A stretch of 64,000 bases of DNA from an uncultured Planctomycetia bacterium (lineage in GTDB: Bacteria; Omnitrophota; Gorgyraeia; 1-14-0-20-64-10): contig CAZQXN010000004.1 in the NCBI GenBank assembly GCA_964597545.1, positions 6,683 to 70,682 of the forward strand, given 5' to 3'. Shown one piece after another: positions 1 to 61,645 of the stretch (within the stretch, counting starts at the first letter, position 1; every line of letters begins with the position of its first letter). The notes beneath the pieces were generated by a model, which was not told the origin of the DNA, searched no databases, and was given only the letters and a program-made list of their open reading frames with translations. Made by a program: the position numbers and the translations under genes.

Positions 1-821
1 TCGATCGCTCCAAACAGCTTCCGATGGTGGTGGCCTCCCAGGAAGGGGGTGTTTCGATCGAGGAAACAGCGGTCTCCCGCCCCGAGGCGATTCTCACCAC
101 CCCCTTTGATCCTTTGCTGGGTCTCTATCCCTATCAGGCGCGTCGGATTATCAAAGGACTCAAGCTTCCAAAGGAGTATGAGTCTGCGGCCATCCAACAG
201 CTGGTTACACTTTCCCGCGGATTCTTCTCCAGCGATGCCTCGCTGGTAGAGATCAACCCCTGGGCGTTAACGAAGGAGCTGGGGCTGGTGGCACTGGATG
301 CCAAGCTGACCTTAGATGACAACGGCCTCTTTCGCCATCCAGAGTGGAACGAGCACAAAACCGCAGATGCCGACAGCCCCATCGAGGCCAAAGCCCGAGA
401 GATTGGCATCAACTACGTGGGATTGGAGGGAGCAGTGGGCTGCATGGTCAACGGTGCTGGGCTTGCGATGGCCACGATGGATTTGATCAAGCTGCACGGT
501 GGAGAGCCGGCCAATTTTTTGGATGTCGGGGGCGGCGCAGATGTCCATCAGGTTCGGGAGGCCTTCAAGCTGATCTTGGCCGATTCCAAGGTGAAGTCCG
601 TCCTCATCAATATCTTTGGCGGGATCATGCAGTGCGATGTAATTGCCCAAGGAATTGTTGAGGCTGCCAGCACGATCAAAGTCCAAGTTCCCTTGGTGGT
701 TCGCCTGGAGGGAACAAATGTTGAGCAAGGCCGCAAGCTTCTGGAGCAGTCCAAGCTTGGGCTCATCACTGCCGCTGACATGGATGAGGCTGCTCGGAAG
801 GTGGTGGAGGCGGCCCGATGA
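1..821 (+). CDS. sucC: Succinyl-CoA synthetase beta subunit, C-terminal part (gene continues upstream of window)
   Basis: Translation (...[23 protein letters not shown]...[22 protein letters not shown]...[14 protein letters not shown]...) matches the SucC CoA-ligase C-terminal domain. Stop overlaps the sucD start (ATGA at 818-821). Confidence 0.85.
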
Positions 822-1738
822 GTGTTTTCCTGGATAAGACCACTCGGGTTATCGTTCAGGGGATTACCGGCAGGGCCGGTTCGTTCCACGCGACCCAGAT
901 GCTGGAGTATGGCACGCAGATTGTTGGGGGTGTTACCCCAGGGCGAGGCGGACAGCAGTGGGGGGAGCTTCCGATCTTTGATACCGTTGAGGAGGCGGTG
1001 GAAAAAACAGGCGCCACCGCCACCGCCATCTTTGTCCCTGCCCCACTGGGAGCCGATGCCATCTTAGAGGCCGTAGAGTCCAAGGTGAATCTGATTGTTG
1101 TCATCACTGAAGGTATCCCGGCACAAGAGATGCTTAAGGTCAAAGCGGTGCTTAAAAACAAAAGGGGTCAGACCCCCAAAGAGAAGGGGTCAGACCCTGT
1201 GATCATCGGTCCCAACGGCCCTGGGATCATTACCCCGGGCGAGGCTAAAATCGGCATCATGCCCGGCTACATCCACCGCCCAGGTTCCATCGGGGTGGTA
1301 TCTCGCTCCGGCACCTTAACCTATGAGGCAGTTTGGCAGTTGACCCAACTGGAGTTAGGACAATCCACCTGTATTGGCGTTGGTGGGGATACCCTCCCTG
1401 GAACCGGCTTTGTTGAGATTTTGGAATGTTTTGAGGCTGATCCTGCCACGCGCGCCATAGTTCTGATCGGTGAGATCGGAGGCTCTGCCGAAGAAGAGGC
1501 CGCTCGTTTCATCCGCGCCCGTGTTCATAAGCCGGTCGTTGCTTTTGTAGCCGGAGCTACCGCACCCGCGGAAAAGCGCATGGGTCATGCCGGCGCGGTG
1601 ATTGCCCAGGGGAAGGGGACCCATGCCTCCAAGATTGAGGCTCTAACTCAAGCCGGTGTCACCGTGGCCCAGAACCCTGCCCTCATTGGAAAGACCCTTG
1701 CCGAATGCCTTGCCGGACACAAGAAGCATGTAGGATGA
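818..1738 (+). CDS. sucD: Succinyl-CoA synthetase alpha subunit, with an unusual in-frame insert at about 1141-1200
   Basis: [45 protein letters not shown]...[41 protein letters not shown] is a canonical SucD. Translationally coupled to sucC. Confidence 0.9.
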
Positions 1739-3678: not shown

Positions 3679-5606
3679 TCCCCCGCCTTAGAACCGGACG
3701 CAAGGTCTCCTTCTTGCTGGCGGGGCTCTTCCTAGTTCGTTTGGCGTGGGCCGAGACCGTAGAGTTGGTCACCTCTTACCCCACCACCGCAGGAGGAGGA
3801 ATCATCAACACCGACAGCCTTGCCGTCGGTTCTGACTACTCCGGCCAAACCCCCCCTGACGGCACCCTCTTAGTTGCCGACAAGGTCGCTATCGGTACCA
3901 CCACCCCTGCCGGCCCCCTCCATGCAGTGGGTGTGGATGACGCAGCGAGTCTCGTCATCTTCGAGGAGGGCACCGACACCGCAGCCACAGGCACCCCAGA
4001 GATCCGCTTAGGGTTAGGCACAGACACCCCCCAAGAACAGCTTCACTTAACCGGTAACCTCATTCTCCCCAAGACCACCGCCACCTCTGGAGCTATTTAT
4101 CTTGGCGCCGACCCCTTTATCCACGGCTATCATGACGCCTACAACAACCTCTTTGTGGGTGCCCAGGCAGGCAACTTTACGATGGACAGCTCTGCCAGCT
4201 GCAACATCGGCATAGGGGCCCTTGCACTCAATGGTTTAACTGAAGAGGGGCAGAATACCGGTGTCGGCTACAAAACCTTCTTTTCCACCACAGAGGGGAA
4301 TAGGAGCGTTGCCGTGGGCAGCAAGGCTCTCAGCAGCCACATGACCGGAGATATGCAGGTTGCCATCGGCGCAGATGCTATGTTGGCGGATGAAGCGGGG
4401 TTCGGAAGCGTTGCCGTAGGATGCGCAGCGTTGTCAGAGCATACCTTCGTTGCAAATAATGTCGCTATTGGGTACGGGGTCATGAACGAACTTACCGCAA
4501 ACAGCAGCGTTGCTGTGGGGTACTTTGCCATGCACGCTTCCGTCAACCCCATAGCCCCCGTTGCCATCGGAGCGCATGCGCTTGAAAACATGGAAAGCGG
4601 ACATTATCAAAATGCTGTGGGCGCCTTAGCCCTATCTTCGAGCACCGCTGCCGACTACAACACCGCTGTAGGCTTCTCTGCCTTGCAGAACAACACAATC
4701 GGTGAGGCCAACGATGCTTTTGGGGCGTATGCGCTTAACGACAACACCACCATGGACAGCAATATTGCCATAGGCACGTATGCTCTGATGCACAATACTG
4801 TTGGGATACAAAACCTTGCTGTTGGGGTCGAGGCTGTCCGCAATTCCAGTAACCACCGCAACCTTGCATTGGGCAGGTCTGCTTTACGAGACAGCACAAC
4901 AGGGCGGAATAATGTTGTGATCGGTTTTGAAGCAGGGGTCAGTGCAACCGGAAATTACAACGTCTTTATTGGTTCGCAGGCCGGCAGCAATGAGACCGGC
5001 GACAACACCCTCTACATCGAAAACTCCGCTTCCTCCACCCCCTTGATCTACGGTGAGTTTGACAACGATCTGATCGCCATCAACGGCAACCTGGGTGTCG
5101 GTACCTCCACCTTTGGCACCGGTGCCGTTGGCGTGCTCGCCATCGCAGAGGGCACCATCCCCGGCTCAAGCCCGGCCAACCAAATCCAGCTCTACGCAGA
5201 AGAGGTCTCCTCCAGCTCAGAGCTCAAGGTCCGCGATGAAGGTGGCACCATCACCACACTCTCCCCCCACAACTTTACGCTCATCCCCCAAGGCCCCAGC
5301 GAGCCGATGGCTTGGTCCTTTTACTCCAAGCGGGGAACCCAGGCCATCAACGCCGACATACTCAAAACAGTTCGCCTCATCGAAAAGCTTTCCGGCGAGC
5401 AGCTTGTCTGGATCAAGAGCCTAAGCAGCCCACAGCCCCCTCCATCCCAGACAGCAACAGAGCCTTCCGCCTTACTCCTTGTCCAGCAGGAGCTCGAAAC
5501 CCTCAAGGCCCAGAATCAAATCCTCAGGCAGCGCCTCAAGCAACAGAGAGGGCGCATCCAATCCTTTCAAGGAGCCCTTCAGCAGCTTAAGGAGCTCCTC
5601 CGATGA
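3675..5606 (+). CDS. Secreted beta-helix repeat protein, paralog B
   Basis: - GTG start overlaps the stop of paralog A (GTGA).
- Same architecture as A: signal peptide, ETVELVTSYPTTAGG N-module, degenerate NxAxG repeats, conserved [27 protein letters not shown]-module, coiled-coil tail. Confidence 0.7.
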   Translation: MIPRLRTGRKVSFLLAGLFLVRLAWAETVELVTSYPTTAGGGIINTDSLAVGSDYSGQTPPDGTLLVADKVAIGTTTPAGPLHAVGVDDAASLVIFEEGTDTAATGTPEIRLGLGTDTPQEQLHLTGNLILPKTTATSGAIYLGADPFIHGYHDAYNNLFVGAQAGNFTMDSSASCNIGIGALALNGLTEEGQNTGVGYKTFFSTTEGNRSVAVGSKALSSHMTGDMQVAIGADAMLADEAGFGSVAVGCAALSEHTFVANNVAIGYGVMNELTANSSVAVGYFAMHASVNPIAPVAIGAHALENMESGHYQNAVGALALSSSTAADYNTAVGFSALQNNTIGEANDAFGAYALNDNTTMDSNIAIGTYALMHNTVGIQNLAVGVEAVRNSSNHRNLALGRSALRDSTTGRNNVVIGFEAGVSATGNYNVFIGSQAGSNETGDNTLYIENSASSTPLIYGEFDNDLIAINGNLGVGTSTFGTGAVGVLAIAEGTIPGSSPANQIQLYAEEVSSSSELKVRDEGGTITTLSPHNFTLIPQGPSEPMAWSFYSKRGTQAINADILKTVRLIEKLSGEQLVWIKSLSSPQPPPSQTATEPSALLLVQQELETLKAQNQILRQRLKQQRGRIQSFQGALQQLKELLR

Positions 5607-7690
5607 CCTTGCGATCAATCCGACACTGGGCCCTCTTGTTCTTGGCAGTTGCCTCCTTTACCTGGCTGGCCCGGGCAGACACCGTGGAATTCACCATCTA
5701 CCACCCGGTCTCAACCGGTGCCGGAGGAACACACGCCGATGAACTGGCCATCGGATCTACCTACTCCAGCGAGACCCCCGGCGACGGCAGCTTAATCGTC
5801 GCCGACCGCTTAGGGATAGGGACCACCAGCCCCGCAGGCCCCCTCCATGTGGTAGGTGTGGACGACACAACCAGCTACGTCATCTTCAAGGAAGGGGCCA
5901 ACACCGCAGCTGCCGGCACCCCGGAGATCCGCGTAGGACTCGGCACCGACGACCCCCAAGAACAACTTCACTTAACCGGTAACCTCAGACTCCCCCCAAC
6001 CACCGTTGACTACGGCTACAAAGCTGGAGTCATCTATACCGACCCCGAAGGTTCCCTGAACCACTATATTCACGGTGATGGTGTTTCAGGAACCTTTATT
6101 GGAAGAGGAGCGGGCAATCTGGTGGTTGATTCCGCGATTGCCCGAAACGTTGGTATCGGCCGATCTGCCCTTTGTGATCCGGACTATACCGGATCAGACA
6201 ATACGGCTGTGGGGGGCAGCGCCTTAAGCTTCAATGAAGATGGGCAGTGGAATGTGGTTGTTGGAGATAGTGCGATGGCTTACAATCTTTCCGGGACTTC
6301 AAATACCGCTTTGGGCCTTTCTGCACTCAATAGCAACACAACCGGCAACTCCAACGTTGCTCTGGGATACAACGCTTTGGTTCAGAACACGACAGGGAGT
6401 TTTAACACTGCTGTTGGGGTGCGCACTTTAACTCAAAGTGCCGACGGCGAAAGGAATGTGGCCGTTGGAGCCAACGCCCTCAGGGACAATCAGGCTGTCG
6501 GCAGCAATGTGGCAGTCGGCGCTGGAGCGCTTGCATCAAATACTACCGGAGAGGGAAATGTTGCCGTAGGCATTGCCTGCCTCGGGCGAAATAGTACCGC
6601 AGATCACAATACGGGCATAGGTCGCTTTGCGCTGTGGGAAAACACCACAGGCTCAGAAAATTCGGTTTTGAGCGGATGGGAGGGTGGCAAAGACAACACA
6701 ACCGGAAGCAGTAACACCGGCGCAGGGTGTAGGGTTCTCTACAGGAATACAACAGCGAGCGACCAAGTTGCGCTGGGTGGGATGGCGCTTGGTAACAGTG
6801 CTCTTGGGGACGGCAGCGTTGGGATTGGCCAATCCGCACTTGCCGCAGATCAGGCAGGGCCCAACAACGTTGTCATTGGCTATGAGGCGGGAAAGTTAGC
6901 TTGCGGTGCCGGCTGCGTCTTTATCGGAAACTGGGTTGGTAGAAGCGAGATGGATAGCGAACAACTCCACATCGATAACTCCTCCACAGACACCCCCTTG
7001 ATCTGCGGTGAGTTCACCGATGGCAGCGAGCTCGTCACCGTAAACCACAACTTAGGTGTTGGCACCGCCACCTTTGGCACCGGTGCCGTTGGCGTGCTCG
7101 CCATCGCCAACGGCGCTATCCCCACCTCAAGCCCGGCCGACCAGATCCAGCTCTACGCTCAGGATGTGGATCAAGGAGGCGGCACCATGCGCTCAGAGCT
7201 TTATGTCCGGGACGAAGCCGGCAATCCGCCCACAAAGCTCTCGGATCCACCCCTGGTGGCAGCTCGCCTCACACCCGGGATCCCGGAGGATTGCAGCAAT
7301 GTGACTGCACTCTCCCCCCATAACTTCTCCCTGATCCCTGGGGGTCCCAGTGAACCGATGGCCTGGTCCTTCTACTCTGAACGTGGAGATACCGCCATCA
7401 ACGTAGACATGCTCAGAGTCGTCCGCTTGGTGGAGCAGATCTCTGGTGAGCACCTCGTCTACCTCAAAGATCTCAAAGCCGGTCAATATTTCCTGCAGCT
7501 GGCCGACATGAAAGAGCTTCCCAGCATAAAACAGTTGAGCGAGCAGGTCGCCACCGTCGGCGCTGAGCAGCGTGCTTTCGAACAGGAGTTGGCAGCGCAG
7601 GAGGAAGATCTGCGCCTCATCCAAGAAATGCTAACCGGGGACGGTCCATTTGGGGACACACCGTGGTCGGCCATTGCGAAAAGGCAGTAG
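5603..7690 (+). CDS. Secreted beta-helix repeat protein, paralog C
   Basis: - ATG overlaps the stop of paralog B (ATGA).
- Signal peptide, conserved N- and C-modules ([26 protein letters not shown]), divergent repeat core.
- 3' end overlaps the left inverted repeat of the RAYT cassette. Confidence 0.7.
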   Translation: MTLRSIRHWALLFLAVASFTWLARADTVEFTIYHPVSTGAGGTHADELAIGSTYSSETPGDGSLIVADRLGIGTTSPAGPLHVVGVDDTTSYVIFKEGANTAAAGTPEIRVGLGTDDPQEQLHLTGNLRLPPTTVDYGYKAGVIYTDPEGSLNHYIHGDGVSGTFIGRGAGNLVVDSAIARNVGIGRSALCDPDYTGSDNTAVGGSALSFNEDGQWNVVVGDSAMAYNLSGTSNTALGLSALNSNTTGNSNVALGYNALVQNTTGSFNTAVGVRTLTQSADGERNVAVGANALRDNQAVGSNVAVGAGALASNTTGEGNVAVGIACLGRNSTADHNTGIGRFALWENTTGSENSVLSGWEGGKDNTTGSSNTGAGCRVLYRNTTASDQVALGGMALGNSALGDGSVGIGQSALAADQAGPNNVVIGYEAGKLACGAGCVFIGNWVGRSEMDSEQLHIDNSSTDTPLICGEFTDGSELVTVNHNLGVGTATFGTGAVGVLAIANGAIPTSSPADQIQLYAQDVDQGGGTMRSELYVRDEAGNPPTKLSDPPLVAARLTPGIPEDCSNVTALSPHNFSLIPGGPSEPMAWSFYSERGDTAINVDMLRVVRLVEQISGEHLVYLKDLKAGQYFLQLADMKELPSIKQLSEQVATVGAEQRAFEQELAAQEEDLRLIQEMLTGDGPFGDTPWSAIAKRQ

Positions 7691-7742
7691 TTAATAGAGG
7701 GCGCGATAGAGAAGAAGCAAGTTTCCTATTTCTGACATAATA

Positions 7743-7772
7743 TTGATAATATGCAAAATCTTGTGGTATGCT
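7743..7772 (+). promoter_or_regulatory. Putative sigma70-type promoter for the RAYT gene (TTGATA - 18 nt - TATGCT, with TG upstream)
   Basis: TTGATA at 7743-7748 and TATGCT at 7767-7772 in an AT-rich gap upstream of the ATG at 7792. Shares an ATATGCAA motif with two other promoter-like sites. Confidence 0.35.
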
Positions 7773-7791
7773 GTCGATCGGGTAATAAAAC

Positions 7792-8388
7792 ATGCCACGA
7801 GTTGCAAGACAAGCCAGTGCGGCGGGATATTATCATGTTGTAGCCAGAGGGCATAACCGTCAGGCCATCTTCCGGGATTCCCAAGACTACCAACAATACC
7901 TCATCTATTTGTCACGTTTTAAAGAAGCGCCATCCTGTCGCTGTTACCATTTCTGCCTTATGCCGAATCATCTCCATTTGTTGCTTGGGATGGATTCTGT
8001 GCGTTCTCTCACTGGGATGATGCGACGAGTGCAGCAGGCATACCAGTTTCATTGGCGTCGTCGCTATGATCTCGTAGGCAATCTTTGGCAGGGAAGGTTT
8101 AAGAGTATTCCGGTTGATCAAGACGAGTACTTATTGGAGGCCAGTCGCTATATTGAACGGAATCCCGTCCGGGCGAAATTATGCGTTCTTCCTGAAGACT
8201 ATCCGTGGTCGAGCGCTCACCTTTACCTTAAGGAGCGAAGCAAAGGGTGCGGTTTGCTTGATTTGAGCCCGGCGTACTTGATGTTAGGTTCCAGCGAAGA
8301 GAAGAGACGGCAACGGTACCGGGAACACATAATGCAAGTACGGCCATATGACCAATTGGTTGACGCACAGATGGAGCGACTGATTTGA
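7792..8388 (+). CDS. REP-associated tyrosine transposase (RAYT), IS200/IS605 TnpA-like HUH Y1 transposase
   Basis: N-terminal YHVVARGHNRQAIF and HUH motif LMPNHLHLLL are typical of Tnp_REP / Y1 transposases. 198 aa. Confidence 0.8.
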   Translation: MPRVARQASAAGYYHVVARGHNRQAIFRDSQDYQQYLIYLSRFKEAPSCRCYHFCLMPNHLHLLLGMDSVRSLTGMMRRVQQAYQFHWRRRYDLVGNLWQGRFKSIPVDQDEYLLEASRYIERNPVRAKLCVLPEDYPWSSAHLYLKERSKGCGLLDLSPAYLMLGSSEEKRRQRYREHIMQVRPYDQLVDAQMERLI

Positions 8389-8450
8389 TGTGCAACGAGG
8401 ACACCTTCCCGGTCAAGGTGATGTAGGTGTGTCCCCAAATGGACCGTCCC

Positions 8451-9809
8451 CTATTGGGTTTGGCCGGTAAAGGTAAAGTCCTTCAACAGCACAGCCGGGG
8501 TGACCACCGAGGTAGCGCCTGAGATCGGATCGGCCACCAGACGAACCTCCTCGGAAAGGGCCTGGATTTTTGAGAAGGCCTGAAGAATCGACTGCGTAAA
8601 CCGTAAATTCTTCACAGCGCTCACCACCCTACCTCTCTCCACCAGAAAGGTTCCGTCTCGAGTCAACCCCGTCATCAAGGCCTGCTGTGTGTCGAGCAGC
8701 CCGTTGACGTAGTGGAAGCGAGTAATCCATAGCCCTCGATCCATACATTGAAGCATTTGGTGATGCGGTACCTTACCCGGGGCCACACAGAGATGGGCGG
8801 CCCCGGGCCCTTCGGCGGCTTCGTCAAAGGCAGGGGCATGCCCGGTGGAGTGGCGGTGGTACAGCTTGGCGTATTGGCTGTCAAAGACCACCCCGCGGGC
8901 CCGTCCCCCCTCAACCAGCGGTACGCGCCTCTTCGGGATCCCTTCAAAATCAAAGGGAGTTGCCAGCCCGCGGGTATCGGTACCGTCATCCCAGATCGAC
9001 AGCGTTGGATGCATGAGTTGCTCTCCCATGCGGCCTGCAAAACAGCTGGTTCGCTCATGCAGCTGTTTGGCCCCAAAGGCGATGGTGGAAAGCCACTCCA
9101 CCAATTCCGCCACCGCCTCGGGCTCAAGCAGGACATTGTACTTCCCCAACCGGATGGTTTTGGAGTTCCTGTTATGCCTGCAGTGGTCCAGGGCTTGCTG
9201 TAGAAGGGACTGTGGGTTGAGGGTCTTGGGGTCGCGAACAGCCCCTGCTGCAAAGCCAGAAGCCTTGCCTTGGGTGGGAATCAATCTTAAGCCCGTGGTT
9301 GAGAAGGGCTGATACTGCGCAAGCCCCCCAGAGCCTACCACGCAGAACTCCTCCTCTCCTGTTGCAAAGGAGCCGGCCAAGTCCATTCCAGCGCGGTGGG
9401 TTTGTTGGGAGAGCTCTCGGATCATTCGGATGTTCTTGGTCAGGTTCTGGCGGTGATCCACTGGGAAGTGCGTCTTGATGGGGGCGGGTTTTTCGCGGGG
9501 TGGATGCGCGCTGAAGGCCGGTGCAGTCTGCTTGCTGGGGAGCCGTGCAATTTGAAGCGCAGAGGCAATCGCGCAAGTGAGTGCACGGTCGCTCAGTGAA
9601 GATGTGGTGGCAACCCCGGCGCGCCCCTCTGCCGCTACCTTGACCCAGACGGTGACATCCTCCTCATGGAAATTTTGATGAATGGCACCCCCGGCAAAGC
9701 GCAGGGTAGTCTTGGCGCCCCGCTGTACGGTTAAAAGGGTCTCATCGGCCGGTGATCTCTTTGCCGCCTCCTTAAGTACAGTCACCATGCGGGATTTACC
9801 CAGGAGCAT
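8451..9809 (-). CDS. pmbA: TldE/PmbA-family metalloprotease-associated protein
   Basis: 452-aa protein with TldD/PmbA-family layout. Start overlaps the stop of the tldD-like gene upstream on the minus strand. Confidence 0.75.
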   Translation of the reverse strand: MLLGKSRMVTVLKEAAKRSPADETLLTVQRGAKTTLRFAGGAIHQNFHEEDVTVWVKVAAEGRAGVATTSSLSDRALTCAIASALQIARLPSKQTAPAFSAHPPREKPAPIKTHFPVDHRQNLTKNIRMIRELSQQTHRAGMDLAGSFATGEEEFCVVGSGGLAQYQPFSTTGLRLIPTQGKASGFAAGAVRDPKTLNPQSLLQQALDHCRHNRNSKTIRLGKYNVLLEPEAVAELVEWLSTIAFGAKQLHERTSCFAGRMGEQLMHPTLSIWDDGTDTRGLATPFDFEGIPKRRVPLVEGGRARGVVFDSQYAKLYHRHSTGHAPAFDEAAEGPGAAHLCVAPGKVPHHQMLQCMDRGLWITRFHYVNGLLDTQQALMTGLTRDGTFLVERGRVVSAVKNLRFTQSILQAFSKIQALSEEVRLVADPISGATSVVTPAVLLKDFTFTGQTQ

Positions 9810-20723: not shown

Positions 20724-22827
20724 AGGTCTTTTTGTTACCGGTACCGGAACAGAGGTAGGAAAAACCGTTGTAACGGCGGCCCTGGCCCATGCCTTCCTTA
20801 GACAGGGAGTGAATGTTGGGGTTGTCAAGCCTATAGCGACCGGCTGCCAGCGGCGCGGCGGCAAACTTATCTCATCGGATGCCGAGAAGCTTCTCCGGGC
20901 AAGCGGCGCTGGGGACCCCACGGAATGGGTCTGTCCCTATCGCTTCAGGCCTCCGGTTGCTCCTTCAGTTGCGGCAGGCAAACAGGGCATCTCCTTCTCT
21001 CGAATCGATCAGGCCATGGAGCGCTTGAGCAGCCGCCATGATCTTCTTTTGGTTGAGGGGATCGGCGGGCTTCTGGTGCCCCTGGATGCCCGCCGCACCG
21101 TTGTGGATCTGGCAGCGCACCTGAAGCTTCCCCTGCTTGTGGTGGCCCATGCGGGGCTAGGGACCCTGAATCATACCCTCCTTACCCTTGAGGCGGCTCG
21201 ATCCAGGAACCTTGAAGTAGCTGGCATTGTCTTGAATCAGCGCAGTCCCACTCCCTCTCTGGCAGAGCAGACCAATCCAGCGGTATTGCGCAAATTGGGT
21301 CAGGTGCCGGTTCTAGGGGTAATCCCTCACCTGAGATTCCCCTCCCCAGAGCAGGTAGCCGGCTACCTTAAGGCCAAAAAGATCTTTCAGAAAATCGGTA
21401 CCAGGTACCAAACCCAAACCCCTTGTACAAAAGGGTCAGACCCTTTCGTACAGCGCCTACGGAGCGGTCACGTACGAAAAGTTCAGACCCTGAGCCATCG
21501 GTACCTGGTACCAAAGGCCGTACCAAAGGCTCAAGCGAAGCGTTTGATCCAGAGCGACCGCAAGCGGCTGTGGCACCCCTTTACCCAGATGCAGGATTGG
21601 GAAAAGGAGGAGTCGCTGATCATCCGCTCTGCCCGCGGGGTGTGGCTTACCGACATCCACGGCCGTCGCTATCTCGATGGTGTCTCCTCCCTCTGGGTCA
21701 ATCTCCACGGCCACCGCCATCCGGCCCTGGACCAGGCCTTAAAACAGCAGGTTGATCGAGTGGCCCACTCCACCCTTTTGGGGGCAGCCAACATTCCCTC
21801 CATCGAGCTGGCAGAGGAGATCTTGCGGGTGGCCCCCAAGAATCTCACACGCGTTTTCTACTCCGACAGCGGCTCTACTGCTGTTGAAATTGCACTCAAG
21901 ATGGCTTTTCAGTACTGGCAGCAAAACGGCCGCCCGCGCCGCCGTCGCTTTGTCCACTTTGTCGATGCCTACCATGGGGATACGGTGGGCTCTGTCTCGG
22001 TCGGCGGGATCGACCTGTTTCATCAGGTGTACAAGCCCCTGCTCTTTAAGGGGTTCAAGGTTCCCTTGAACAAGATTAAGCCCTTTGAGGAGACCCTGCG
22101 CAAGCACCACCCCGAGATTGCCGGTGTCGTGGTAGAGCCCTTGGTGCAAGGGGCGGCTGGGATGGCGACCCAACCCAAAGGGTGGCTCAAGCAGGTAGAA
22201 AGGCTCTGCCGCCGCTACGGACTGCTGCTGATTGCTGATGAGGTGGCAGTAGGTTTCGGGAGAACCGGCACGATGTTTGCCTGCGAGCAGGAGAAGGTGC
22301 GTCCAGATCTGCTCTGTTTGGCCAAGGGGTTAAGCGGCGGCTACCTTCCTCTGGCGGCGACCCTGGCCTCTGAGCGAATTTACAAAGGGTTTTTGGGCTC
22401 CTATGCCTCCAAGCGGACCTTTTTTCATGGGCACAGCTACACCGGAAATCCCTTGGCCTGCGCGGTTGCTTTAGAGAGCCTGCGTCTTTTCCGCCGCGAG
22501 AAGGTGCTGCAGAGACTTAAGCCTAAAATCCGGCTCTTTACACAGGAGCTCAAACGCTTCTGGGAACTTCCCCATGTAGGAGATGTGCGCCAGCAGGGGC
22601 TGATGGCTGGCATCGAGCTAACCCAAGATAAAGCAAAAGGCACCCCTTATCCCTGGGAAACCAAGATGGGGATTCAAGTCTGCAGTGCGCTCAGAGCCGA
22701 GGGCATTCTCTTGAGACCCCTGGGCAACGTGGTGGTGCTCATGCCCCCTCTGGTCATCTCCCGAGAGGAGCTTAACTTTCTTTGCCGCAAGACCTATACT
22801 GCTGTGGATCGAGTGACTGGCATTTGA
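20716..22827 (+). CDS. bioDA: Dethiobiotin synthetase fused in-frame to adenosylmethionine-8-amino-7-oxononanoate aminotransferase (BioD-BioA), linker encoded by a MITE-like repeat
   Basis: - N-terminal GTGTEVGKTVVTAAL P-loop (BioD).
- C-terminal WHPFTQMQ...YSDSGSTAVEIALKMA class-III aminotransferase (BioA).
- Single ORF with no stop between them.
- A possible internal TTG at 21544 could also start bioA independently. Confidence 0.8.
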   Translation: MTRGLFVTGTGTEVGKTVVTAALAHAFLRQGVNVGVVKPIATGCQRRGGKLISSDAEKLLRASGAGDPTEWVCPYRFRPPVAPSVAAGKQGISFSRIDQAMERLSSRHDLLLVEGIGGLLVPLDARRTVVDLAAHLKLPLLVVAHAGLGTLNHTLLTLEAARSRNLEVAGIVLNQRSPTPSLAEQTNPAVLRKLGQVPVLGVIPHLRFPSPEQVAGYLKAKKIFQKIGTRYQTQTPCTKGSDPFVQRLRSGHVRKVQTLSHRYLVPKAVPKAQAKRLIQSDRKRLWHPFTQMQDWEKEESLIIRSARGVWLTDIHGRRYLDGVSSLWVNLHGHRHPALDQALKQQVDRVAHSTLLGAANIPSIELAEEILRVAPKNLTRVFYSDSGSTAVEIALKMAFQYWQQNGRPRRRRFVHFVDAYHGDTVGSVSVGGIDLFHQVYKPLLFKGFKVPLNKIKPFEETLRKHHPEIAGVVVEPLVQGAAGMATQPKGWLKQVERLCRRYGLLLIADEVAVGFGRTGTMFACEQEKVRPDLLCLAKGLSGGYLPLAATLASERIYKGFLGSYASKRTFFHGHSYTGNPLACAVALESLRLFRREKVLQRLKPKIRLFTQELKRFWELPHVGDVRQQGLMAGIELTQDKAKGTPYPWETKMGIQVCSALRAEGILLRPLGNVVVLMPPLVISREELNFLCRKTYTAVDRVTGI
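21393..21517. mobile_element. MITE/REP-like hairpin element with terminal inverted repeats AATCGGTACCAGGTACCAAACCC / CCTTTGGTACCAGGTACCGATG, inserted in-frame in the bioD-bioA linker
   Basis: - Terminal GGTACCnGGTACC units are in inverted orientation.
- Internal GGGTCAGACCCTTTCGTAC / GTACGAAAAGTTCAGACCC inverted pair.
- The same 19-mer recurs at 57034-57052. Confidence 0.6.
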
Positions 22828-37607: not shown

Positions 37608-37655
37608 CCGGTACCGGGTACAATGTACCCGGTACAATGTACCCGGTACATTTTT
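37608..37655. repeat. GGTACC-family hairpin repeat (two CCGGGTACAaTGTACCCGG copies plus T-run), probable bidirectional terminator between dcd and gpmA
   Basis: ggtaccgggtacaatgtacccggtacaatgtacccggtacattttt. Confidence 0.55.
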
Positions 37656-42841: not shown

Positions 42842-42868
42842 GATCTAAAATCTGGTACCGTAAAATCT

Positions 42869-42916
42869 GGTACCGGGTACACTTTTCAACAGTGTACCCG
42901 GTACCTTTGTTTTGTT
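42869..42916 (+). terminator. 15-bp perfect hairpin of the GGTACC repeat family followed by a T-rich run
   Basis: GGTACCGGGTACACTtttcaacAGTGTACCCGGTACC then TTTGTTTTGTT. Confidence 0.5.
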
Positions 42917-42954
42917 GACGGATCCCTTCCGTACCTGGTACCGTCTTTGTTGTC

Positions 42955-48001: not shown

Positions 48002-48032
48002 ATCGGTACCTAAATCGGTACCAGGTACCGAT
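48002..48032. repeat. GGTACC-family palindromic repeat (AATCGGTACCaGGTACCGATT)
   Basis: Perfect 10-bp-arm palindrome directly after the purH stop. Confidence 0.5.
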
Positions 48033-51346: not shown

Positions 51347-54300
51347 ATGCAAACACAGAAGTTAGCCTATCAACTCACAGCACTCATCCTATCGGCAGCT
51401 CTGACGCTGCCCCCTTCTGCGTACGCGCTGCGCCCGCAAGAGAAACAGGAAGCTTCCGGCCTAGAGGAGCTTACCAAGGCCCTGCGCTTAGGCAATCCAG
51501 ACGCTGCCCTCGACACCCTTGTTCAAAGTGTCGCTGAGCGCCTCACCCTACCTGTCCCAGCTACCGGCCAGGAGGAAGGACCGGCAGATAGGATAAGGAC
51601 CCTGCTGGAGAGATCCCCCAATACCGAAACCATCTTTCACATCATCGGTCGGGATCTTCTGAGCACCTACCCCGACCTGAGAGGGTTTCATGATCTCCAT
51701 TCCTCTTTTGCTGTCGAGGGAATATCTAATTCATCTTCGGACTTGATCAGGAGGCATGCTGGGCCAGGCCACCTAGAAGTTTGGTATCACTACCCACAGA
51801 AAGCTGTCTGGATCTCGTGGGAAGAGATGCAATATTCTGCAACGAATTCCAGACGCGGATTTCAGAGGAAAGTTTACCTCTCTACACCCGCCAGGGAGAG
51901 GTTAGGCGTAGAGGGATTCCTTCGGCACCTCCTTGGTCCAGGGCAACTCAATGTTCCCAGTGAACTTTGGGATGGCGATGAAGCAATGTTCCAGGTCCTT
52001 GAAGACCTGGCGACCCTCTCCTCCGCCGGCCAGGAGGAAGCGGAACAAATCCATCAATTCCCAAAAGACGTTATCTCTGAGGAAGAATTACACCTACTTC
52101 CAGCCCAGATATTTCTTTGGGGCATGTTTCGTTTCAATCAAGTGGTTGAGGACCGTTTTGTCGTAAGGCTGAAGAATCGAAGAAACAAAATAGAGATAAT
52201 CCCAGGAGATCCAGAAGATCTTCCAGAAGACGCAGCCATGATGCGCTTGGAGGTACAGGCTCAAGATACCGTGACCGTTACGGTAGAGGGAGCGGCATCT
52301 CCAGAGATTAGAGAGATGGCGGCGGATATCGTCTCGGATTGGCTGAGCAAAGTTTTCCAAGTCAACCAGGAGCTTAAAGCCAAGCAGGCCGAGCACGAGG
52401 GTTCTTTTAAAGATAAAGCCAACGCCATCAAGAGACGAGCTTGGGACGAGTTTTCTGAAAGCTTGACGCCGCTTAAAGCAGCCCTTTCCGCTGGCCAAGA
52501 GGAGGCGGCGCTGGATGAGATTGAGGCAGCCATCGAAACAAAAAGGAGCCTCGACTTCACGCCTACAACCATTCTAAAGCATGGCGATGTCCTGGGCCGT
52601 TTCCATGGAGCCAGGGGCGCTTCGGCCGATGTTTATGTGGAGGCAGATCACGTCCTAGGCAAAGTACTCAACTCCCCCTTCTTCCTGAGAATGGTCCTGG
52701 CACAGCATCTTGGCAAGACCATTGCCGGTGCCACTCCCCTTTCAGTGGATCGACATAGACCCCCCCCGGACAATGTCCGCTTTGCCCTGAATCTTCCCTA
52801 TAGGGATTATCTTGAGGCGATGGAGCCAAGCTTAGAAATGCTGGAGCGCTTAATTGACGATCCAGGGGAGATGGTAGAGGTAGTGGTAGTGGAACCGGCC
52901 CCTCATTCTGGAGGGGCTTGGGTCATTTATAAGGGAGGCCCAGGAGAGGCTTGGGTGCCCGGTTTCATCCCTACCCGCTTTGTGTTTGCCAAGAGTGTGC
53001 CGCATAGTGCAGCCCCTGGGAGATGGTGGCTGCACTCGAAGATCGGACAGACCATTCGCGTTAGGCCGGACAGTGTTAATCGGAGGGGCCATTTTCCGCA
53101 GGCAGTCTTTGCCGCGGACCAGTCCTTTAATGCGGTTCGACGAGAGATTCGCCTGGCCGAACGAGAACTTCAGCAGCGAGACAAAGAGCATATCCCAGTC
53201 CGAGTGATTCTCGTTCACGAAGCTCTGCAGGGAGTCGAGGTGATGTATCGGAGTCAAAACGGCGGGTGGATAAGCGGTTTTATCCCCCCCTCCCGCATCT
53301 CCTTTCATTCTAAAGGACGGCCTGTCGGAAGGTTGCCCCATCTGCTTGACCGCTTGGGTTGGTTCCTCTCCCGGGTTGGCCAGGATATTCCAGCGGATCT
53401 TATCGCGATTGACAGCAGCAGAGGGCTTCCCAGAGCCACCTTCTCTGTCCGCTTGTCTTTGGAGGAAGTGCTCCAGGAGATGCAGCCAGCCCTTGAGCGG
53501 TTAGGTCAGGCAGCGGCCAATCCGAACGATCGGGTTGATGTGGAGTTGGCCTTGTTGGGCAGTAGAGAGGATGCAAACAGTATGAGGTATAGCCATTGGA
53601 ACCAGACAAGCTGGGTTCCGGGCTTCATTCCTGCGAGCCTATTCCTGGATGATCCTCACCAGAAAGTGCATACCTCCATTATCCGCGCTTGGTTATGGCG
53701 GCACCGGCATGAAAAGATTCCGGTGGCCGTAAAAGATGTTACACACAATCGACACCTTCCCAGGGCAGCCTTCAGCCTTGGACTTACAATTGACCAACTT
53801 AAAGCGGAGATTGAGCCTGCAGCCGAGCAGTTGGAAGGCTTAGGCCCGGGAGAGCTTCAGGTTCCATGTGAGGTGATACCCGCTACTGTAGAGGCCGGAG
53901 CAGAGGTGTTGTATCGCGGGCCCAGAGGAACGTGGATCCCAGGTTTTATTCATAAGAGCTACATCCGCTTTTTAGATAGAACAGTAGCTCCTCATGCCCT
54001 TTGGAGTCAATGGCTGAAAAGGCAAGTTGGCCGCAAGATCAATGTTACGTTTAATCACATCAAGCGCAATGATCCCATCCCGTCCGCGCTTTTTTCGTTG
54101 ACTCTGCCTGAGGATGTCCGGCCCTCTTTCCGTCCGGGCAAGACAGCTTCCGCTGGCCAGGAGGAGTGGTCAGCGGATGTTTGGAATCGACTTCACGCCG
54201 TCGGGCTGCATGGGACAACTGGCCCCTTGCTCAAGGAAATCATCCAGTATTACTCCAGGCAGGGGGCCGACGCCGATTTCGAGGGTGTCCGGGAAAAATG

Positions 54301-57001
54301 GGAAGCAATTGCCCGGATCATCCCTGATGCTCCGAGTCTTTCCGGTGTGGCAGAGGGTGTTGTGAGCGGTTTTATAGAGCGGGAGCTTCCCCTTTGGAAA
54401 CTTTCCGGGGTCCTCCTTCGCCGAGGCAGGTATGGTGAGGGTCACGGTGTTCTGCTGATTGGAGACGCCCGGCATGCTACAGTGAAAGCGCCCCAGACCA
54501 TTCAAATCAACCGAGGTTTAACCGGCCTCGCTCTTTTCCTTGTGGGAGATCCGAATATGAGCTGGGTTAAGCCACCACCCAAAGCTCCGGATTGGCGGTT
54601 CCTTGCTCAAAACAATCTTGTTGGCTTCGTAAGCGATGGCCAGCTCATTGTTGGCTCCAATCCCACGACAGAGAACCCCTCTGGACTGCGCGCCAAGATA
54701 GGTTGGCGGGATGACGACGTACCCTTTGGGTCAACAAGAATCCAATCCAGAGGAGAGTTTATTCCTGTTGAGCGCATCATCAAACTGGAAATGAAGGATA
54801 CCAAACCCTCAAAGATTGAGGCGGTTTGGGTCGGCTCTTCGCACGTAGCAATTCCGGAAGCGTTGGTACAGATCCTTGAGAGAATCGACGCCATTCATTT
54901 GGAGATCCAAGAGGGGGATCGTTTGGGGCAGTACCGGGAGTATGCTGGGCGCCTGCATCGAGAGTATTTTGCCGGCCTGGAAGAGGTTCAAGACGAGGTG
55001 GTGCGGCAGGCATGGGACGAATTGCGTCGGATTGTTACCCTAGAAGAATTTCAGGTTGACGATGAGGAGGCTCTTGTTCGGTTTGGGAAATCCACAGGGG
55101 CTAAAGTGGTTAAGAAAACAATTACAGGACGCCCCATCGTTACTATTGGACCGGAAATGTTCCGGAAATTGACCGCTTTTCGCCAGACAGGCCAACTTCC
55201 GCCTGGTACCCCCGCCAAGCATTATGAAGAACTACGAAACAATGATGAAGTGAATGAACCTGGCGTTTATGTGAGTCCTACCGGACTGAAAATGGCGCAT
55301 CAGGAGTTGGCTGCCGCAGGCATTGATTTTCGTTATACGAAAGGAATCTTCTTTCATGAGGCGCTGGAGGAAGGGTTTGATGGTTCCGGAATCACTGACC
55401 CCATCTTGGCTCTATGTGAACAGCATACGGACCCAAGGGTGATCGAAGAGGAGCTTCTGGTCAATGCGTTAATCGGGGAAGAAAGCGTAGAGGCCTCACG
55501 GGCAGGTTATCAATTCGCCAAACAGAGAGTTGATCAAAACCTCAGCAATAGCCAGCGCTTCTTCGCGTTTGTTAAAGACCGTTACGAGAGCGGAGGCCGT
55601 TCTACCACATTTGATGAGATTGAAGCCTCGCTTGGCCCAACAAGCCGGTATTATCGAACACTCCAATGGGTTGTTGATACCCCGTACGACCAACTCCTCG
55701 CATTGGCCCAAAGACGCTGGGAAGGATCCGATTACTCCTCTGCCGTTCCTCTCGCAGCCGGCCTGGAGGAGGAGACAACCAGAGTCCTGGCTCCTACGCT
55801 GGAAGTTCCAATTGCTGCCCTGGAAGAGGGTAATCTAGAGCAAGCACTGCAAGGATCTGCCTATCTCCTGGAGCCTAAGCCGACAACAGATCAACTCGAA
55901 ACATCTTTTGTGCAATTCCCCGGTGAACTCTGGGCTGTTGGATTCAGGGATCGAGACAATATTCCGCATCTCGCTGTTGGAGCAGGAAACAGGGATCACG
56001 CTATTGGCATAACTGATTTCTTAACCAAGGCATACAGCGCGGCGCCCGTCAGCGTTGACGTCGTTCACAAGCATCCGGAGCCCCCCTTTCCTTCGAAGGG
56101 AGATTTTGATCTATTGAGAACCTGGAAGCTACGCCAGGGAGGGCGCGTAGGCCGACAGCGCAATTGGGTTGAGATTCGCCGAGATGGAGTGTGGCGACTC
56201 CTTGGGTACGGGAGAGATTATAAAGAGACGGCAGATTTCCAAAGAGAGATTCAGGTTCAGATTTGGAAAAGAGGCGAGAGGGCGCAGAACGAGTTCTATC
56301 TTCCAGGTACTGGAGGTTTACGCGTTGCGCTTGTCGCGGACCAAGAGGTTTTTGGCATCCCGGGCCTTGATTATTTCTATCAGTTGATCGACCAGCCTGA
56401 GACAACAGGGGTCAGGTTCGAAGATGCCGTTGGCCACTGGGTTCTCTGGAGGGCAGACAACACCTGGGAATCTATCTTCGAATCACAAGGCTATACTCGT
56501 TCTGCCACTAGCTTTTCGACAGCGAGCAGGGCAGGGCCGGTGGAAGCGGCAGGCGCGCTGCTTACGCGGTTGGCCCAAGCCGCAGAAGGCCAACCCGGCG
56601 TTTTGGTGCTCACCCCTGAGGCCATCCAGGATCCAGCCGGCCTAGAGGAGCTTATCAAGCGCCTCCCCCCAGAGCTCTTACGACGGACCATCTGGTTCAA
56701 CACAGGAGTTGCCCTGGCCGAATACCTGCACTCCCTTGAACCCACCCTCCAGATCATAAAGGACTACAACACCCAAGCCCTGGTCCTAAAACTCCTCAGC
56801 AGGGAAGAGGCAGAGAAGATCACCACCACCTCTAAAGATCTTGCCCTCTACCTCCAAGAAGTCCTCCCCATGACCGTCACCTACCTTAAGGTCCTCACCG
56901 TCAAGCTGATCCTGGCGGCCCTAGGGGTTCCCATCGAACAGCTCAACCAGATCGACCCCACCAAGCTCGAAGCCCTCTTCGCACCGCTGGTAGCCGCCTA
57001 A
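51347..57001 (+). CDS. Giant secreted protein (1884 aa), unknown function, with four W[VI]PGFIP-type internal repeats and recurrent A-x-G-(L/Q)-E-E motifs
   Basis: - Signal peptide MQTQKLAYQLTALILSAALTLPPSAYA.
- Repeats (GEAWVPGFIPTRF..., GGWISGFIPPSRI..., TSWVPGFIPASLF..., GTWIPGFIHKSYI...), each followed by a basic segment and L..A.FS..L.
- C-terminal 135-aa module is duplicated at 63200-63624. Confidence 0.7.
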   Translation: MQTQKLAYQLTALILSAALTLPPSAYALRPQEKQEASGLEELTKALRLGNPDAALDTLVQSVAERLTLPVPATGQEEGPADRIRTLLERSPNTETIFHIIGRDLLSTYPDLRGFHDLHSSFAVEGISNSSSDLIRRHAGPGHLEVWYHYPQKAVWISWEEMQYSATNSRRGFQRKVYLSTPARERLGVEGFLRHLLGPGQLNVPSELWDGDEAMFQVLEDLATLSSAGQEEAEQIHQFPKDVISEEELHLLPAQIFLWGMFRFNQVVEDRFVVRLKNRRNKIEIIPGDPEDLPEDAAMMRLEVQAQDTVTVTVEGAASPEIREMAADIVSDWLSKVFQVNQELKAKQAEHEGSFKDKANAIKRRAWDEFSESLTPLKAALSAGQEEAALDEIEAAIETKRSLDFTPTTILKHGDVLGRFHGARGASADVYVEADHVLGKVLNSPFFLRMVLAQHLGKTIAGATPLSVDRHRPPPDNVRFALNLPYRDYLEAMEPSLEMLERLIDDPGEMVEVVVVEPAPHSGGAWVIYKGGPGEAWVPGFIPTRFVFAKSVPHSAAPGRWWLHSKIGQTIRVRPDSVNRRGHFPQAVFAADQSFNAVRREIRLAERELQQRDKEHIPVRVILVHEALQGVEVMYRSQNGGWISGFIPPSRISFHSKGRPVGRLPHLLDRLGWFLSRVGQDIPADLIAIDSSRGLPRATFSVRLSLEEVLQEMQPALERLGQAAANPNDRVDVELALLGSREDANSMRYSHWNQTSWVPGFIPASLFLDDPHQKVHTSIIRAWLWRHRHEKIPVAVKDVTHNRHLPRAAFSLGLTIDQLKAEIEPAAEQLEGLGPGELQVPCEVIPATVEAGAEVLYRGPRGTWIPGFIHKSYIRFLDRTVAPHALWSQWLKRQVGRKINVTFNHIKRNDPIPSALFSLTLPEDVRPSFRPGKTASAGQEEWSADVWNRLHAVGLHGTTGPLLKEIIQYYSRQGADADFEGVREKWEAIARIIPDAPSLSGVAEGVVSGFIERELPLWKLSGVLLRRGRYGEGHGVLLIGDARHATVKAPQTIQINRGLTGLALFLVGDPNMSWVKPPPKAPDWRFLAQNNLVGFVSDGQLIVGSNPTTENPSGLRAKIGWRDDDVPFGSTRIQSRGEFIPVERIIKLEMKDTKPSKIEAVWVGSSHVAIPEALVQILERIDAIHLEIQEGDRLGQYREYAGRLHREYFAGLEEVQDEVVRQAWDELRRIVTLEEFQVDDEEALVRFGKSTGAKVVKKTITGRPIVTIGPEMFRKLTAFRQTGQLPPGTPAKHYEELRNNDEVNEPGVYVSPTGLKMAHQELAAAGIDFRYTKGIFFHEALEEGFDGSGITDPILALCEQHTDPRVIEEELLVNALIGEESVEASRAGYQFAKQRVDQNLSNSQRFFAFVKDRYESGGRSTTFDEIEASLGPTSRYYRTLQWVVDTPYDQLLALAQRRWEGSDYSSAVPLAAGLEEETTRVLAPTLEVPIAALEEGNLEQALQGSAYLLEPKPTTDQLETSFVQFPGELWAVGFRDRDNIPHLAVGAGNRDHAIGITDFLTKAYSAAPVSVDVVHKHPEPPFPSKGDFDLLRTWKLRQGGRVGRQRNWVEIRRDGVWRLLGYGRDYKETADFQREIQVQIWKRGERAQNEFYLPGTGGLRVALVADQEVFGIPGLDYFYQLIDQPETTGVRFEDAVGHWVLWRADNTWESIFESQGYTRSATSFSTASRAGPVEAAGALLTRLAQAAEGQPGVLVLTPEAIQDPAGLEELIKRLPPELLRRTIWFNTGVALAEYLHSLEPTLQIIKDYNTQALVLKLLSREEAEKITTTSKDLALYLQEVLPMTVTYLKVLTVKLILAALGVPIEQLNQIDPTKLEALFAPLVAA

Positions 57002-57024: not shown

Positions 57025-57053
57025 GGTACCAAGGGGTCAGACCCTTTCGTACC
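57025..57053. repeat. GGTACC / GGGTCAGACCC-family hairpin after the giant gene (contains the 19-mer GGGTCAGACCCTTTCGTAC also found at 21434)
   Basis: GGTACCAAGGGGTCaGACCCTTTCGTACC is an imperfect hairpin. Confidence 0.5.
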
Positions 57054-60424: not shown

Positions 60425-60502
60425 TTGTACACTAGCTTGATTCTTGGCGGAAGAAGATATGGTGGAATCTCAAAGGGATTGAAGGAAAAGGGGGTTGCGG
60501 GA

Positions 60503-61645
60503 ATGAAGAGCAAGATGAAATTGATTATAGGTATGATAATGGGATTTTCATTCTCGGTAGTGATGCTATGTATGGGGGGTAGTTCCATATATGCTGCCGA
60601 GCTTGAGGTGGATAAGGAGGAATTTAACGAAAAATGGCAGGAAACCTACAAGGAACTTCAGGAGATTGATCCTACAGCAGCCGAAGAATTTCGCGCTTTA
60701 ACTGTGGAGGAATTTGAAGTAGGAAATGTCGGATATGTTCCTGAAGAGAGAGGGGGGACTGAGGAAATAGGTCCTGGCCCTGCTCCCGGTCCTAGGCCTG
60801 GTCCGCATGTCGGTCCCCGTCCTGATCCCGTGGAAGCTTTGAAAGCAAAAGGAATAAGTGATGAGGATATTGGCAAGATTCGCAAGGCTGAGGAAGCATT
60901 AAGCGTGGAAAGCGAGAAGGTCGAATGGGATAAGCTGACTCCCGAGGAAGCAAGGAAGGTGGAGCAGTCCTTCGGAGAACGTTTCAAGGAAATGAGCGGG
61001 TATGATCCAAAAGATATTTTTGCCCCGCCTCCGGGAGACCACCACCCAGAAGGCCCATATCACGGGCCAGGACATGAGGGGCCTTACGCTGGTCCTCATC
61101 ATGAAGGGCCTTATGTCGGTCCTCGTCCGGAACCTGGCTTCATAGAGGGTCCATATCCTGGGCCAGGACATGAAGGACCTTACGCCGGTCCTCATCCAGA
61201 ACGTGGTTTTGAAGGTCCCGTGATGGGGGGGCCGATGCCTGAAGGTCCCGTGATGGGGGGGCCGATGCCTGAAGGTCCCATGATGGAGGGCCCGGCATTT
61301 GAGGGTCCTATGATGGGGGGGCCGATGCCTGAAGGTCCCATGATGGATAGGCCGATGTTTGAAGGTCCTATGATGGAGGGCCCGGCGTTTGAGGGTCCCA
61401 TGATGGAAGGGCCGGCATTTGAGGGTCCCATGATGGAGGGCCCGGCGTTTGAGGGCCCGGCATTTGAGGGCCCAGCGTTTGAGGGTCCGGCGTTTGAGGG
61501 CCCGGCATTTGAGGGTCCGGCGTTTGAGGGCCCGGCATTTGAGGGCCCAGCGTTTGAGGGTCCGGCATTTGAGGGCCCAGGAGAGGATATAGAGCATATC
61601 CATGATGAGAATATGCCACCACCTCCAGAAGAGAATAATCCGTAA
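60503..61645 (+). CDS. Secreted His/Pro/Gly-rich tandem-repeat protein (EGPYxGPxH, EGPMMEGP and EGPAFEGP repeats)
   Basis: Signal peptide MKSKMKLIIGMIMGFSFSVVMLCMGGSSIYA at the ATG at 60503. 15-nt and 30-nt periodic coding repeats at about 61020-61600. AT-rich context. Confidence 0.7.
   Translation: MKSKMKLIIGMIMGFSFSVVMLCMGGSSIYAAELEVDKEEFNEKWQETYKELQEIDPTAAEEFRALTVEEFEVGNVGYVPEERGGTEEIGPGPAPGPRPGPHVGPRPDPVEALKAKGISDEDIGKIRKAEEALSVESEKVEWDKLTPEEARKVEQSFGERFKEMSGYDPKDIFAPPPGDHHPEGPYHGPGHEGPYAGPHHEGPYVGPRPEPGFIEGPYPGPGHEGPYAGPHPERGFEGPVMGGPMPEGPVMGGPMPEGPMMEGPAFEGPMMGGPMPEGPMMDRPMFEGPMMEGPAFEGPMMEGPAFEGPMMEGPAFEGPAFEGPAFEGPAFEGPAFEGPAFEGPAFEGPAFEGPAFEGPGEDIEHIHDENMPPPPEENNP

Follow-up and report, generated by a model that had tools for sequence, protein, structure and literature searches.

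The sucD gene of succinate–CoA ligase encodes a central enzyme of the TCA cycle. In the 64-kb stretch of uncultured Omnitrophota DNA analysed here (the window), it carries two copies of a short palindrome within its reading frame. How did such a sequence come to be translated in this enzyme, and is it there for a reason? A sequence-only reading of the window had proposed that a fragment of a dispersed repeat element became a coding insertion in a surface loop. This proposal holds up, and is supported by a 14-mer shared with a dispersed copy, by a related palindrome in the sucD loop of another genome (L084), by the low predicted confidence (pLDDT) of the loop and by arrays of the motif that flank RAYT genes in two other loci (L147 and L184). 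The window loop shows one of the states of a site that is old and variable across the phylum, and at which palindromes appear to be re-seeded, duplicated, replaced and left to decay.

The sucD insert and its motif in the window

The product of the host gene matches SucD profiles over its full length and above cutoff (TIGR01019, 429.7 bits, cutoff 353; NF004230, 420.5 bits), and E. coli SCS alpha matches it with E = 2e-102. The phosphohistidine motif region is intact, with MGHAG conserved at M255-G259, and sucC (24..821) overlaps the start of sucD. The positions of the features discussed are collected in Table 1. The insertion with its two palindromic 11-mers is present as first described: window 1141-1200 reads caaagcggtgcttaaaaacaaaaGGGGTCAGACCCccaaagagaaGGGGTCAGACCCtgt, and an HMMER alignment to 2nu7_A gives a net gain of 10 residues over E. 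coli SucD, between VKxxL and IGPN. This corresponds to 30 nt net, with cores of 13 nt.

The segment 1156-1199 is a 22-nt direct doublet, each unit of which contains GGGGTCAGACCC. The units, AAACAAAAGGGGTCAGACCC (1156-1175) and AAAGAGAAGGGGTCAGACCC (1178-1197), are 90% identical over 20 nt. Because 22 nt is not a multiple of three, the two copies are read in different frames, the first as AGG GGT CAG ACC CCC (RGQTP) and the second as AAG GGG TCA GAC CCT (KGSDP). They can also pair with one another through arms at 1165-1176 and 1186-1197, which are 92% complementary. The description of the units as hairpin repeats is apt for the doublet, as the two copies together fold as RNA with -21.5 kcal/mol (z = -3.4), and not for a lone 11-mer, which forms only a very short stem of about 4-5 bp. 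Neither terminal inverted repeats nor a target-site duplication, as expected of a MITE, were found around the sucD units, which are themselves self-palindromic cores.

Several other candidates were rejected. Programmed frameshifting or bypass was discarded since the upstream CTT AAA AAC AAA has no in-frame X XXY YYZ heptamer and is absent in other lineages, and since every insert keeps the reading frame. No supporting feature was seen for restriction sites, DGR targets, a BirA operator or a Tn3-type inverted repeat (GGGGTCTGAC...), and these readings were dropped.

An AlphaFold (AF2) model of the window SucD, built from a 32-sequence alignment (mean pLDDT 74.5), has a helix at residues 102-116, a coil at 117-127 (pLDDT <50 at 117-124) and a strand at 128-130. 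The model thus places the insert in a low-confidence surface loop between helix and strand, the location that had been suggested. In the N-terminal domain, a CoA-binding domain of Rossmann type, this loop forms a turn from helix to strand, and from the topology of the fold such turns would be expected to face opposite the ligand site.

The 11-mer GGGTCAGACCC occurs four times in the window (1165-1175, 1187-1197, 21433-21443 and 57034-57044), where 0.05 copies are expected, and none of 100 dinucleotide-preserving shuffles reached four. Three of the four copies across the 64 kb lie in a coding frame. Copies outside sucD had been listed at 21434, 21478 and 57034. Those at 21433 and 57034 are exact, and the one listed at 21478 proves to be a degenerate copy, AGTTCAGACCC, at 21480-21490 with two mismatches. 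The setting of the copy at 21433 also needs correction, since it is not simply intergenic and forms part of the reading frame of a BioD-BioA fusion, within the linker. The 14-mer AAGGGGTCAGACCC is common to the sucD copies and the dispersed copy at 57031-57044, and the window copies outside sucD (...GGGTCAGACCCTTTCGTAC) match CGAAAGGGGTCWGACCCCTTTCG, an extended palindrome of 23 nt in the sucD loop of L084, from another Omnitrophota genome. The copies in the window have GTAC on both sides (GTAC...GTAC).

The window also contains a second family of dispersed palindromes, mostly intergenic, which is built on (ATC)GGTACCWGGTACC and GTACCCGGTAC. Locus L004 carries a palindrome, GAGTACCGGGTACGC...GCGTACCCGGTACTC, that is related to this family. 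The hexamer GGTACC occurs 34 times in the window, compared with about 16 expected from length alone.

Table 1. Positions of the sucD insert, related repeats and associated genes in the window
Feature	Position	Strand	Details
sucD, succinate--CoA ligase alpha subunit	818..1738	+	306 aa; insert host; matches TIGR01019, NF004230 and E. coli SCS alpha
Variable loop segment K113-V128	1154..1201	+	16 residues; HMMER alignment to 2nu7_A, AF2 model
Putative REP core, copy 1, GGGGTCAGACCCC	1164..1176	+	read R-G-Q-T-P (frame GGT CAG ACC)
Putative REP core, copy 2, GGGGTCAGACCC	1186..1197	+	read K-G-S-D-P (frame GGG TCA GAC)
Left arm of perfect 26-nt inverted repeat flanking the RAYT-like gene, GGGGACGGTCCATTTGGGGACACACC	7637..7662		
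RAYT-like Y1 transposase gene	7792..8388	+	198 aa; PF01797 51.5 bits; NF047646 73.3 bits (cutoff 80); 6 kb downstream of sucD
Right arm of the same inverted repeat, GGTGTGTCCCCAAATGGACCGTCCCC	8426..8451		
BioD-BioA fusion ORF	20686-22827	+	713 aa; homologues 650-757 aa
Composite repeat cluster	21397..21512	+	in frame in BioD-BioA linker; encodes ...GTRYQTQTPCTKGSDPFVQRLRSGHVRKVQTLSHRYLVPK...
Cluster part GGTACCAGGTACC	21397-21409		
Cluster part GTACaaaaGGGTCAGACCCtttcGTAC	21425-21451		
Cluster part GTACgaaaAGTTCAGACCC	21472-21490		degenerate copy
Cluster part GGTACCTGGTACC	21500-21512		
Intergenic copy GGTACCaaGGGGTCAGACCCtttCGTACC	57025..57053	+	about 30 nt past the stop of a 1884-aa ORF (51347..57001)
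Second-family sites	21397-21409, 21500-21512, 37610-37652, 42854-42942, 48005-48033, 63635-63686		

The SucD loop across Omnitrophota

The best homologues of the window SucD are from Omnitrophota. In about 80 SucD sequences of this phylum the loop ranges from the canonical length to about 30 extra residues, and homologues from outside the phylum all have the short form. Recurring loop peptides are of the types GQTP/GLTP/GSDP/GVRP, GQSP/GLSP/GTVP and GARINPGTQ, while about half of the Omnitrophota loops have no palindrome-type peptide. DNA from eight lineages shows that these peptides are translated palindromes, and that the loop encodes at least three unrelated palindrome families, in different frames.

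One to three perfect copies of GGGTC[A/T]GACCC lie in the loop of L083 (which has a further, C-centred copy), L084 (three copies), L085 (two copies) and L206, and are read as GQTP, GLTP, GSDP or GVRP. The copies are spaced by 15, 22 (the window) or 25 nt depending on lineage, and the three copies in L084, whose loop folds with -53 kcal/mol, occupy all three forward frames. As both spacing and reading frame vary between lineages, it is the DNA motif that is shared, and not the peptide. Doublets in the loops of L083, L084 and L085 are inverted (centre A then T), while that of the window is direct (A/A). Between the window sucD and those of L083, L084, L085 and L206, four-fold degenerate sites are saturated (0.35-0.42 identity) and the 11-mers are still perfect.

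Other loops carry other palindromes. That of L208 contains GGGACTGTCCC twice and that of L004 a perfect 30-nt palindrome, TTGGGTGCCAGGATTAATCCTGGCACCCAA, so that two genes 92% identical differ in loop palindrome family. Outside the loop, P0047 and P0050 share about 99% identity, yet their loop sequences are unrelated, and the loop of P0029 contains two palindrome families side by side. On a rough neighbour-joining tree of SucD from which the loop was left out, members of the three families are intermixed. This turnover among near-identical genes, together with the interspersed families, means that simple vertical inheritance cannot explain the pattern.

The closest relative of the window SucD (P0002, 92% protein identity; loci L001/L002) has a segment only one codon shorter, in which the motifs have decayed to at most 7/11 identity and which folds with -5.8 kcal/mol (z = +0.9), i.e. 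without a hairpin. A segment of the same length in a close relative, free of the palindrome, had been named as a finding that would refute a repeat-derived insert. P0002 comes near to this, and the repeat-derived reading is nevertheless still supported. What changes is its timing, since a palindrome-free segment of near-equal length in this relative indicates that the insert was not a recent arrival in a canonical SucD.

In-frame deletions of about 26 and 45 codons were seen in the sucD genes of L206 (485-1330; P0079) and L207 (4001-4783; P0080), respectively. Both abut or span the palindromic loop, and the ITEGIP region is lost. They had been taken for frameshift truncations at the loop, a view rejected on the DNA, which shows in-frame deletions beside it. 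They could be palindrome-driven deletions, pseudogenes or the result of mis-assembly of metagenome-assembled genomes.

The core in metagenomes and its association with RAYT genes

Metagenome contigs were scanned for two motif copies within 30 nt, which gave at least 120 loci. Among the matches listed, GC content ranges from 0.36 to 0.74 and only one locus contains sucD. The 189 copies taken from these loci have a conserved 13-nt core, GGGGTCWGACCCC, with variable and usually self-complementary flanks. Adjacent pairs are inverted in 62 of 103 cases and direct in 41, and tandem arrays occur as well. Many of the listed copies lie at contig ends, as is expected of multi-copy repeats. No copies were found in 853 kb of loci from Planctomycetota, Verrucomicrobiota and other genomes, a background drawn from a SucD-alignment genome scan with over-general peptide patterns and including only three Omnitrophota loci.

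Four of the metagenome loci (L099, L131, L172 and L202) have a common flank, AAACC(C)GGTAAACC[T/A], beside a tight GGGTCWGACCC doublet, which suggests a conserved sub-family or a conserved host site. Tandem arrays of the 13-nt core with periods of 23-29 nt and no unique spacers are found in L133 (1252-1347), L136 (2146-2271) and L102 (2257-2330), and resemble the 15/22/25-nt arrays of the sucD loops.

A Y1 transposase gene is present in two of the at least 120 metagenome loci listed, on contigs unrelated to each other, and in both the motif brackets the gene. In L147 the RAYT gene (2626-3042) has two copies of GTGGGGTCAGACCCC on its left and two of GTGGGGTCTGACCCC on its right, and the RAYT gene of L184 (201-626) is flanked in the same way. 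Arrays of the core that flank a RAYT gene in inverted orientation are the defining REP-RAYT arrangement. The L147 copies start with GTGG, a variant reported for the GTAG-20 family of Opitutus terrae (PMC3733652). For the RAYTs of L147, L184, L208 and the window the best family is NF047646 (REP-associated tyrosine transposase), with the L147 protein above the cutoff and the other three just below it. Proteins homologous to that of L147 bear the JGI name RayT and are from Thermoleophilia-like Actinomycetota.

Several observations count against the assignment to REPs. The GTAG/CGTC tag of REPs is absent from GGGGTCWGACCCC, and positions beside the core are unconserved in the 189 copies. The 64 kb of the window contain only four copies of the 11-mer, no motif copy was found outside sucD in the L083, L084, L085 and L206 loci (6-12 kb), and a RAYT cognate to the GGGTCAGACCC core was seen neither in the window nor in any Omnitrophota locus examined. 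The DNA compared showed neither a transposition event nor a rule for target sites nor a pair of filled and empty loops. The window RAYT, which is 43% identical to that of L208 and 40% to that of L147, has a flank (GGGGACGGTCC...) that differs from GGGTCAGACCC. Its left arm GGGGACGGTCCATTTGGGGACACACC, the first part of which resembles the GGGGACWGTCCCC family of other SucD loops, lies in frame in the C-terminal tail (..GDGPFGDTPW..) of a 695-aa ORF (5603..7690). The RAYT of L209, chosen by protein similarity alone and 66% identical to that of L147, is likewise flanked by a different inverted repeat, CCTGGTGTCAGGCACCTAAC. The other flanking repeats of the L209 and window RAYTs suggest that the specificity of core for RAYT depends on lineage.

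RAYT genes also recur in the neighbourhood of sucD. They lie directly downstream of sucCD in two Thermoleophilia-like contigs (L147 1642-3042; L209 7871-10474). In two Omnitrophota loci (window 818-8388; L208 4150-7330) they are also downstream of sucD, at a distance of 1.6-6 kb. A syntenic RAYT is found between sucD and the pmbA/tldD pair in L208, and is absent from L083, L085 and L206. That both phyla show this neighbourhood could be chance, or could reflect a cis effect tied to a REP hot spot. The bearing of the data on RAYT mobilisation is indirect, as it would be read from sequence comparisons, namely from cores that are perfect despite saturated synonymous sites and from family replacement between genes 92-99% identical.

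Repeat-encoded peptides are found at other coding sites too. BioD-BioA fusion is the norm in Omnitrophota and ancestral there, and the linker is variable in length, with repeat-encoded peptide in several lineages. The window linker is about 35 aa longer than usual, and the relative with 85% identity is without the GGGTCAGACCC part. Elsewhere, the linker of P0255 carries GVRP...GLTP, and those of P0250 and P0282 the GGTACC type. In L208 the C-terminal tails of Mdh (..GSDPSKGKGVRPL, then stop) and SucC (..RGLSPKGTVPKGI, then stop) are REP-encoded. Copies in linkers, in tails and in one surface loop suggest that the REPs of these compact genomes end up where coding sequence tolerates them.

Possible origins of the insert and comparison with known systems

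We consider it probable (roughly 0.7) that the insert is a passenger REP doublet in a permissive SucD loop, and that the loop is an old landing pad, seen here in one of its states, which REP mobility, recombination or slippage keep rewriting and which otherwise decays. The GGGGTCAGACCC units would be copies of a REP-type palindrome, short non-autonomous elements associated with RAYT (Y1/HUH) transposases, which would be translated as junk peptide (RGQTP / KGSDP) in the helix-to-strand loop. An ancestral Omnitrophota SucD would have gained an insertion here, and the site could then act as a landing pad because the loop would tolerate any sequence and REP hairpins already present would attract further REP activity, recombination or slippage. 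At this pad, palindromes would be re-seeded, duplicated (here as the 22-nt direct doublet), inverted or replaced by other families, and would otherwise decay neutrally. Selection would act only to keep the frame open, to avoid the stop-containing frame (GG GTC TGA CCC) and to preserve SucD function. A dedicated role of the element in SucD is most likely absent, although the mRNA hairpin may mildly slow translation.

Permissiveness alone does not explain why palindromes are concentrated on one loop of one gene, which counts against the passenger explanation. It is conceivable, if unlikely, that the loop is a site-specific landing pad for RAYT-driven palindromes, perhaps through RAYT action in cis, or that the hairpin has been co-opted as a pause or processing signal at a SucD domain boundary. 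If so, one orthologous coding site would, for the first time in a natural system, allow the insertion, replacement and decay of REPs to be traced phylum-wide.

We think it quite improbable that the palindrome is a selected cis-acting element, kept at its position for its function whatever peptide it encodes. It would then be an mRNA pause hairpin at the boundary of the N-terminal CoA-binding domain, a determinant of RNase III cleavage or stability, or the operator of a dimeric regulator. Many lineages do have strong hairpins at this one codon position, although synonymous sites are saturated and frames shift. Different palindromes occupy the place, and GGGACWGTCCC has a paired A:T where GGGTCWGACCC has T:A, a swap that keeps the pairing. 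In L083, moreover, about 12 kb of DNA contain no strong palindrome other than that of the loop, and in L085 there is one other. Selection for function is harder to reconcile with the missing hairpin of the closest relative, with the roughly half of Omnitrophota loops that have no palindrome-type peptide, and with the presence of the same motifs in unrelated permissive coding sites, in intergenic regions and beside transposase genes. Template-switch correction of quasipalindromes can maintain palindromy without selection. Rfam gave no family for the motif, whether in the window or in 13 loci that bear it, and returned spurious miRNA-like hairpin matches only.

An ordinary fast-evolving, low-complexity loop, in which the 11-mer was doubled by 22-nt slippage and resembles other copies by coincidence, is very unlikely. 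The units are indeed a tandem direct repeat and loop length varies widely in homologues. Local duplication may have given the second copy, yet it leaves unexplained where the motif came from. Exact 11-mers are also present at two further window loci, in sucD loops of lineages whose synonymous divergence is saturated, and beside RAYT genes. Least credible of all is an assembly or binning artefact in which palindromic reads were mis-joined in sucD, since, although palindromes can cause mis-assembly and suspicious deletions abut the loop in P0079 and P0080, the sucD ORF is intact and in frame, and assemblies made independently from different samples (NCBI, JGI and ENA) contain equivalent inserts.

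The passenger REP explanation has precedents. Intragenic REPs have been described in several species, mostly as dimers encoding 20-30 residues and in greatest number in the verrucomicrobium O. terrae (Di Nocera et al. 2013, PMC3733652). None of the cases listed there is SucD, and the families carry GTAG or CGTC tags (PMC3733652). As in REP/REPIN-RAYT systems, the elements described here are short GC-rich palindromes found as singletons, direct or inverted doublets and small arrays. In L147 and L184 such arrays, inverted with respect to each other, bracket one Y1/HUH transposase gene, and the elements may sit preferentially just 3' of genes. Like the published REPs they give occasional in-frame copies of about 5-30 residues, mostly dimers, and the richest published case, O. 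terrae, also belongs to the PVC group. They differ in that GGGGTCWGACCCC has no GTAG or CGTC tag, in that the core is common to contigs of such different GC content, and in that the window RAYT is flanked by a different repeat. Published intragenic REPs are scattered over sites, whereas here a single loop hosts three families across a phylum, with turnover at the strain level. In-frame intragenic REPs are thus already known; the core sequence, the host phylum and a single-loop hot spot with multi-family turnover are new. A literature search for the 11-mer string returned primers and viral sequences only, and no description of GGGGTCWGACCCC.

Rickettsia palindromic elements (RPE; Ogata et al. 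2000, as cited in PMC3733652) are the classical case of selfish palindromes that have entered housekeeping genes without breaking the frame. They too are translated and placed where the protein fold tolerates insertion. Classical RPE-1 elements are much longer, at about 100-150 bp. RPE are recognised by homology to consensus families of this length, and the SucD units are analogous to them in behaviour only. RPE are not known to have been linked to RAYTs originally, and their insertions are mostly single, old and lineage-fixed, whereas the SucD loop is a recurrently rewritten site. The uptake sequences (USS/DUS) of Pasteurellaceae and Neisseriaceae are very abundant genome-wide and selected through uptake bias. 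Like them, the motif acts at the DNA level, is tolerated in the least constrained frames or protein regions and often forms inverted pairs; unlike them, it has a low density, local arrays and a link to a transposase.

REPs are extragenic by name, and in-frame translated copies are a rarely documented exception. The present case adds a central TCA-cycle enzyme to their hosts, in an uncultivated phylum whose genomes are compact. REP turnover is hard to follow in intergenic DNA because orthology is quickly lost there. One orthologous loop with at least three families and strain-level turnover offers a natural time series for REP birth, duplication, replacement and decay. The loop is also usable as a strain-typing marker. 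Caution is needed in the annotation and alignment of Omnitrophota SucD, BioDA, Mdh and SucC, as odd loops and tails in these proteins are repeat-encoded.

Two further features of the window were noted. Right after sucD (1705-7690, + strand) lie three consecutive paralogous ORFs of about 640-700 aa, with signal-like N-termini, NTTG/NVAVG-type repeats and conserved C-terminal parts. In L084 and L085 the neighbours at the same position have Peptidase_S74 domains, and gene content there varies by lineage. A c-di-GMP-I riboswitch (RF01051; 51.4 bits, gathering score 35) is located at 60282-60374 on the + strand, just upstream of the ORF at 60425..61645.
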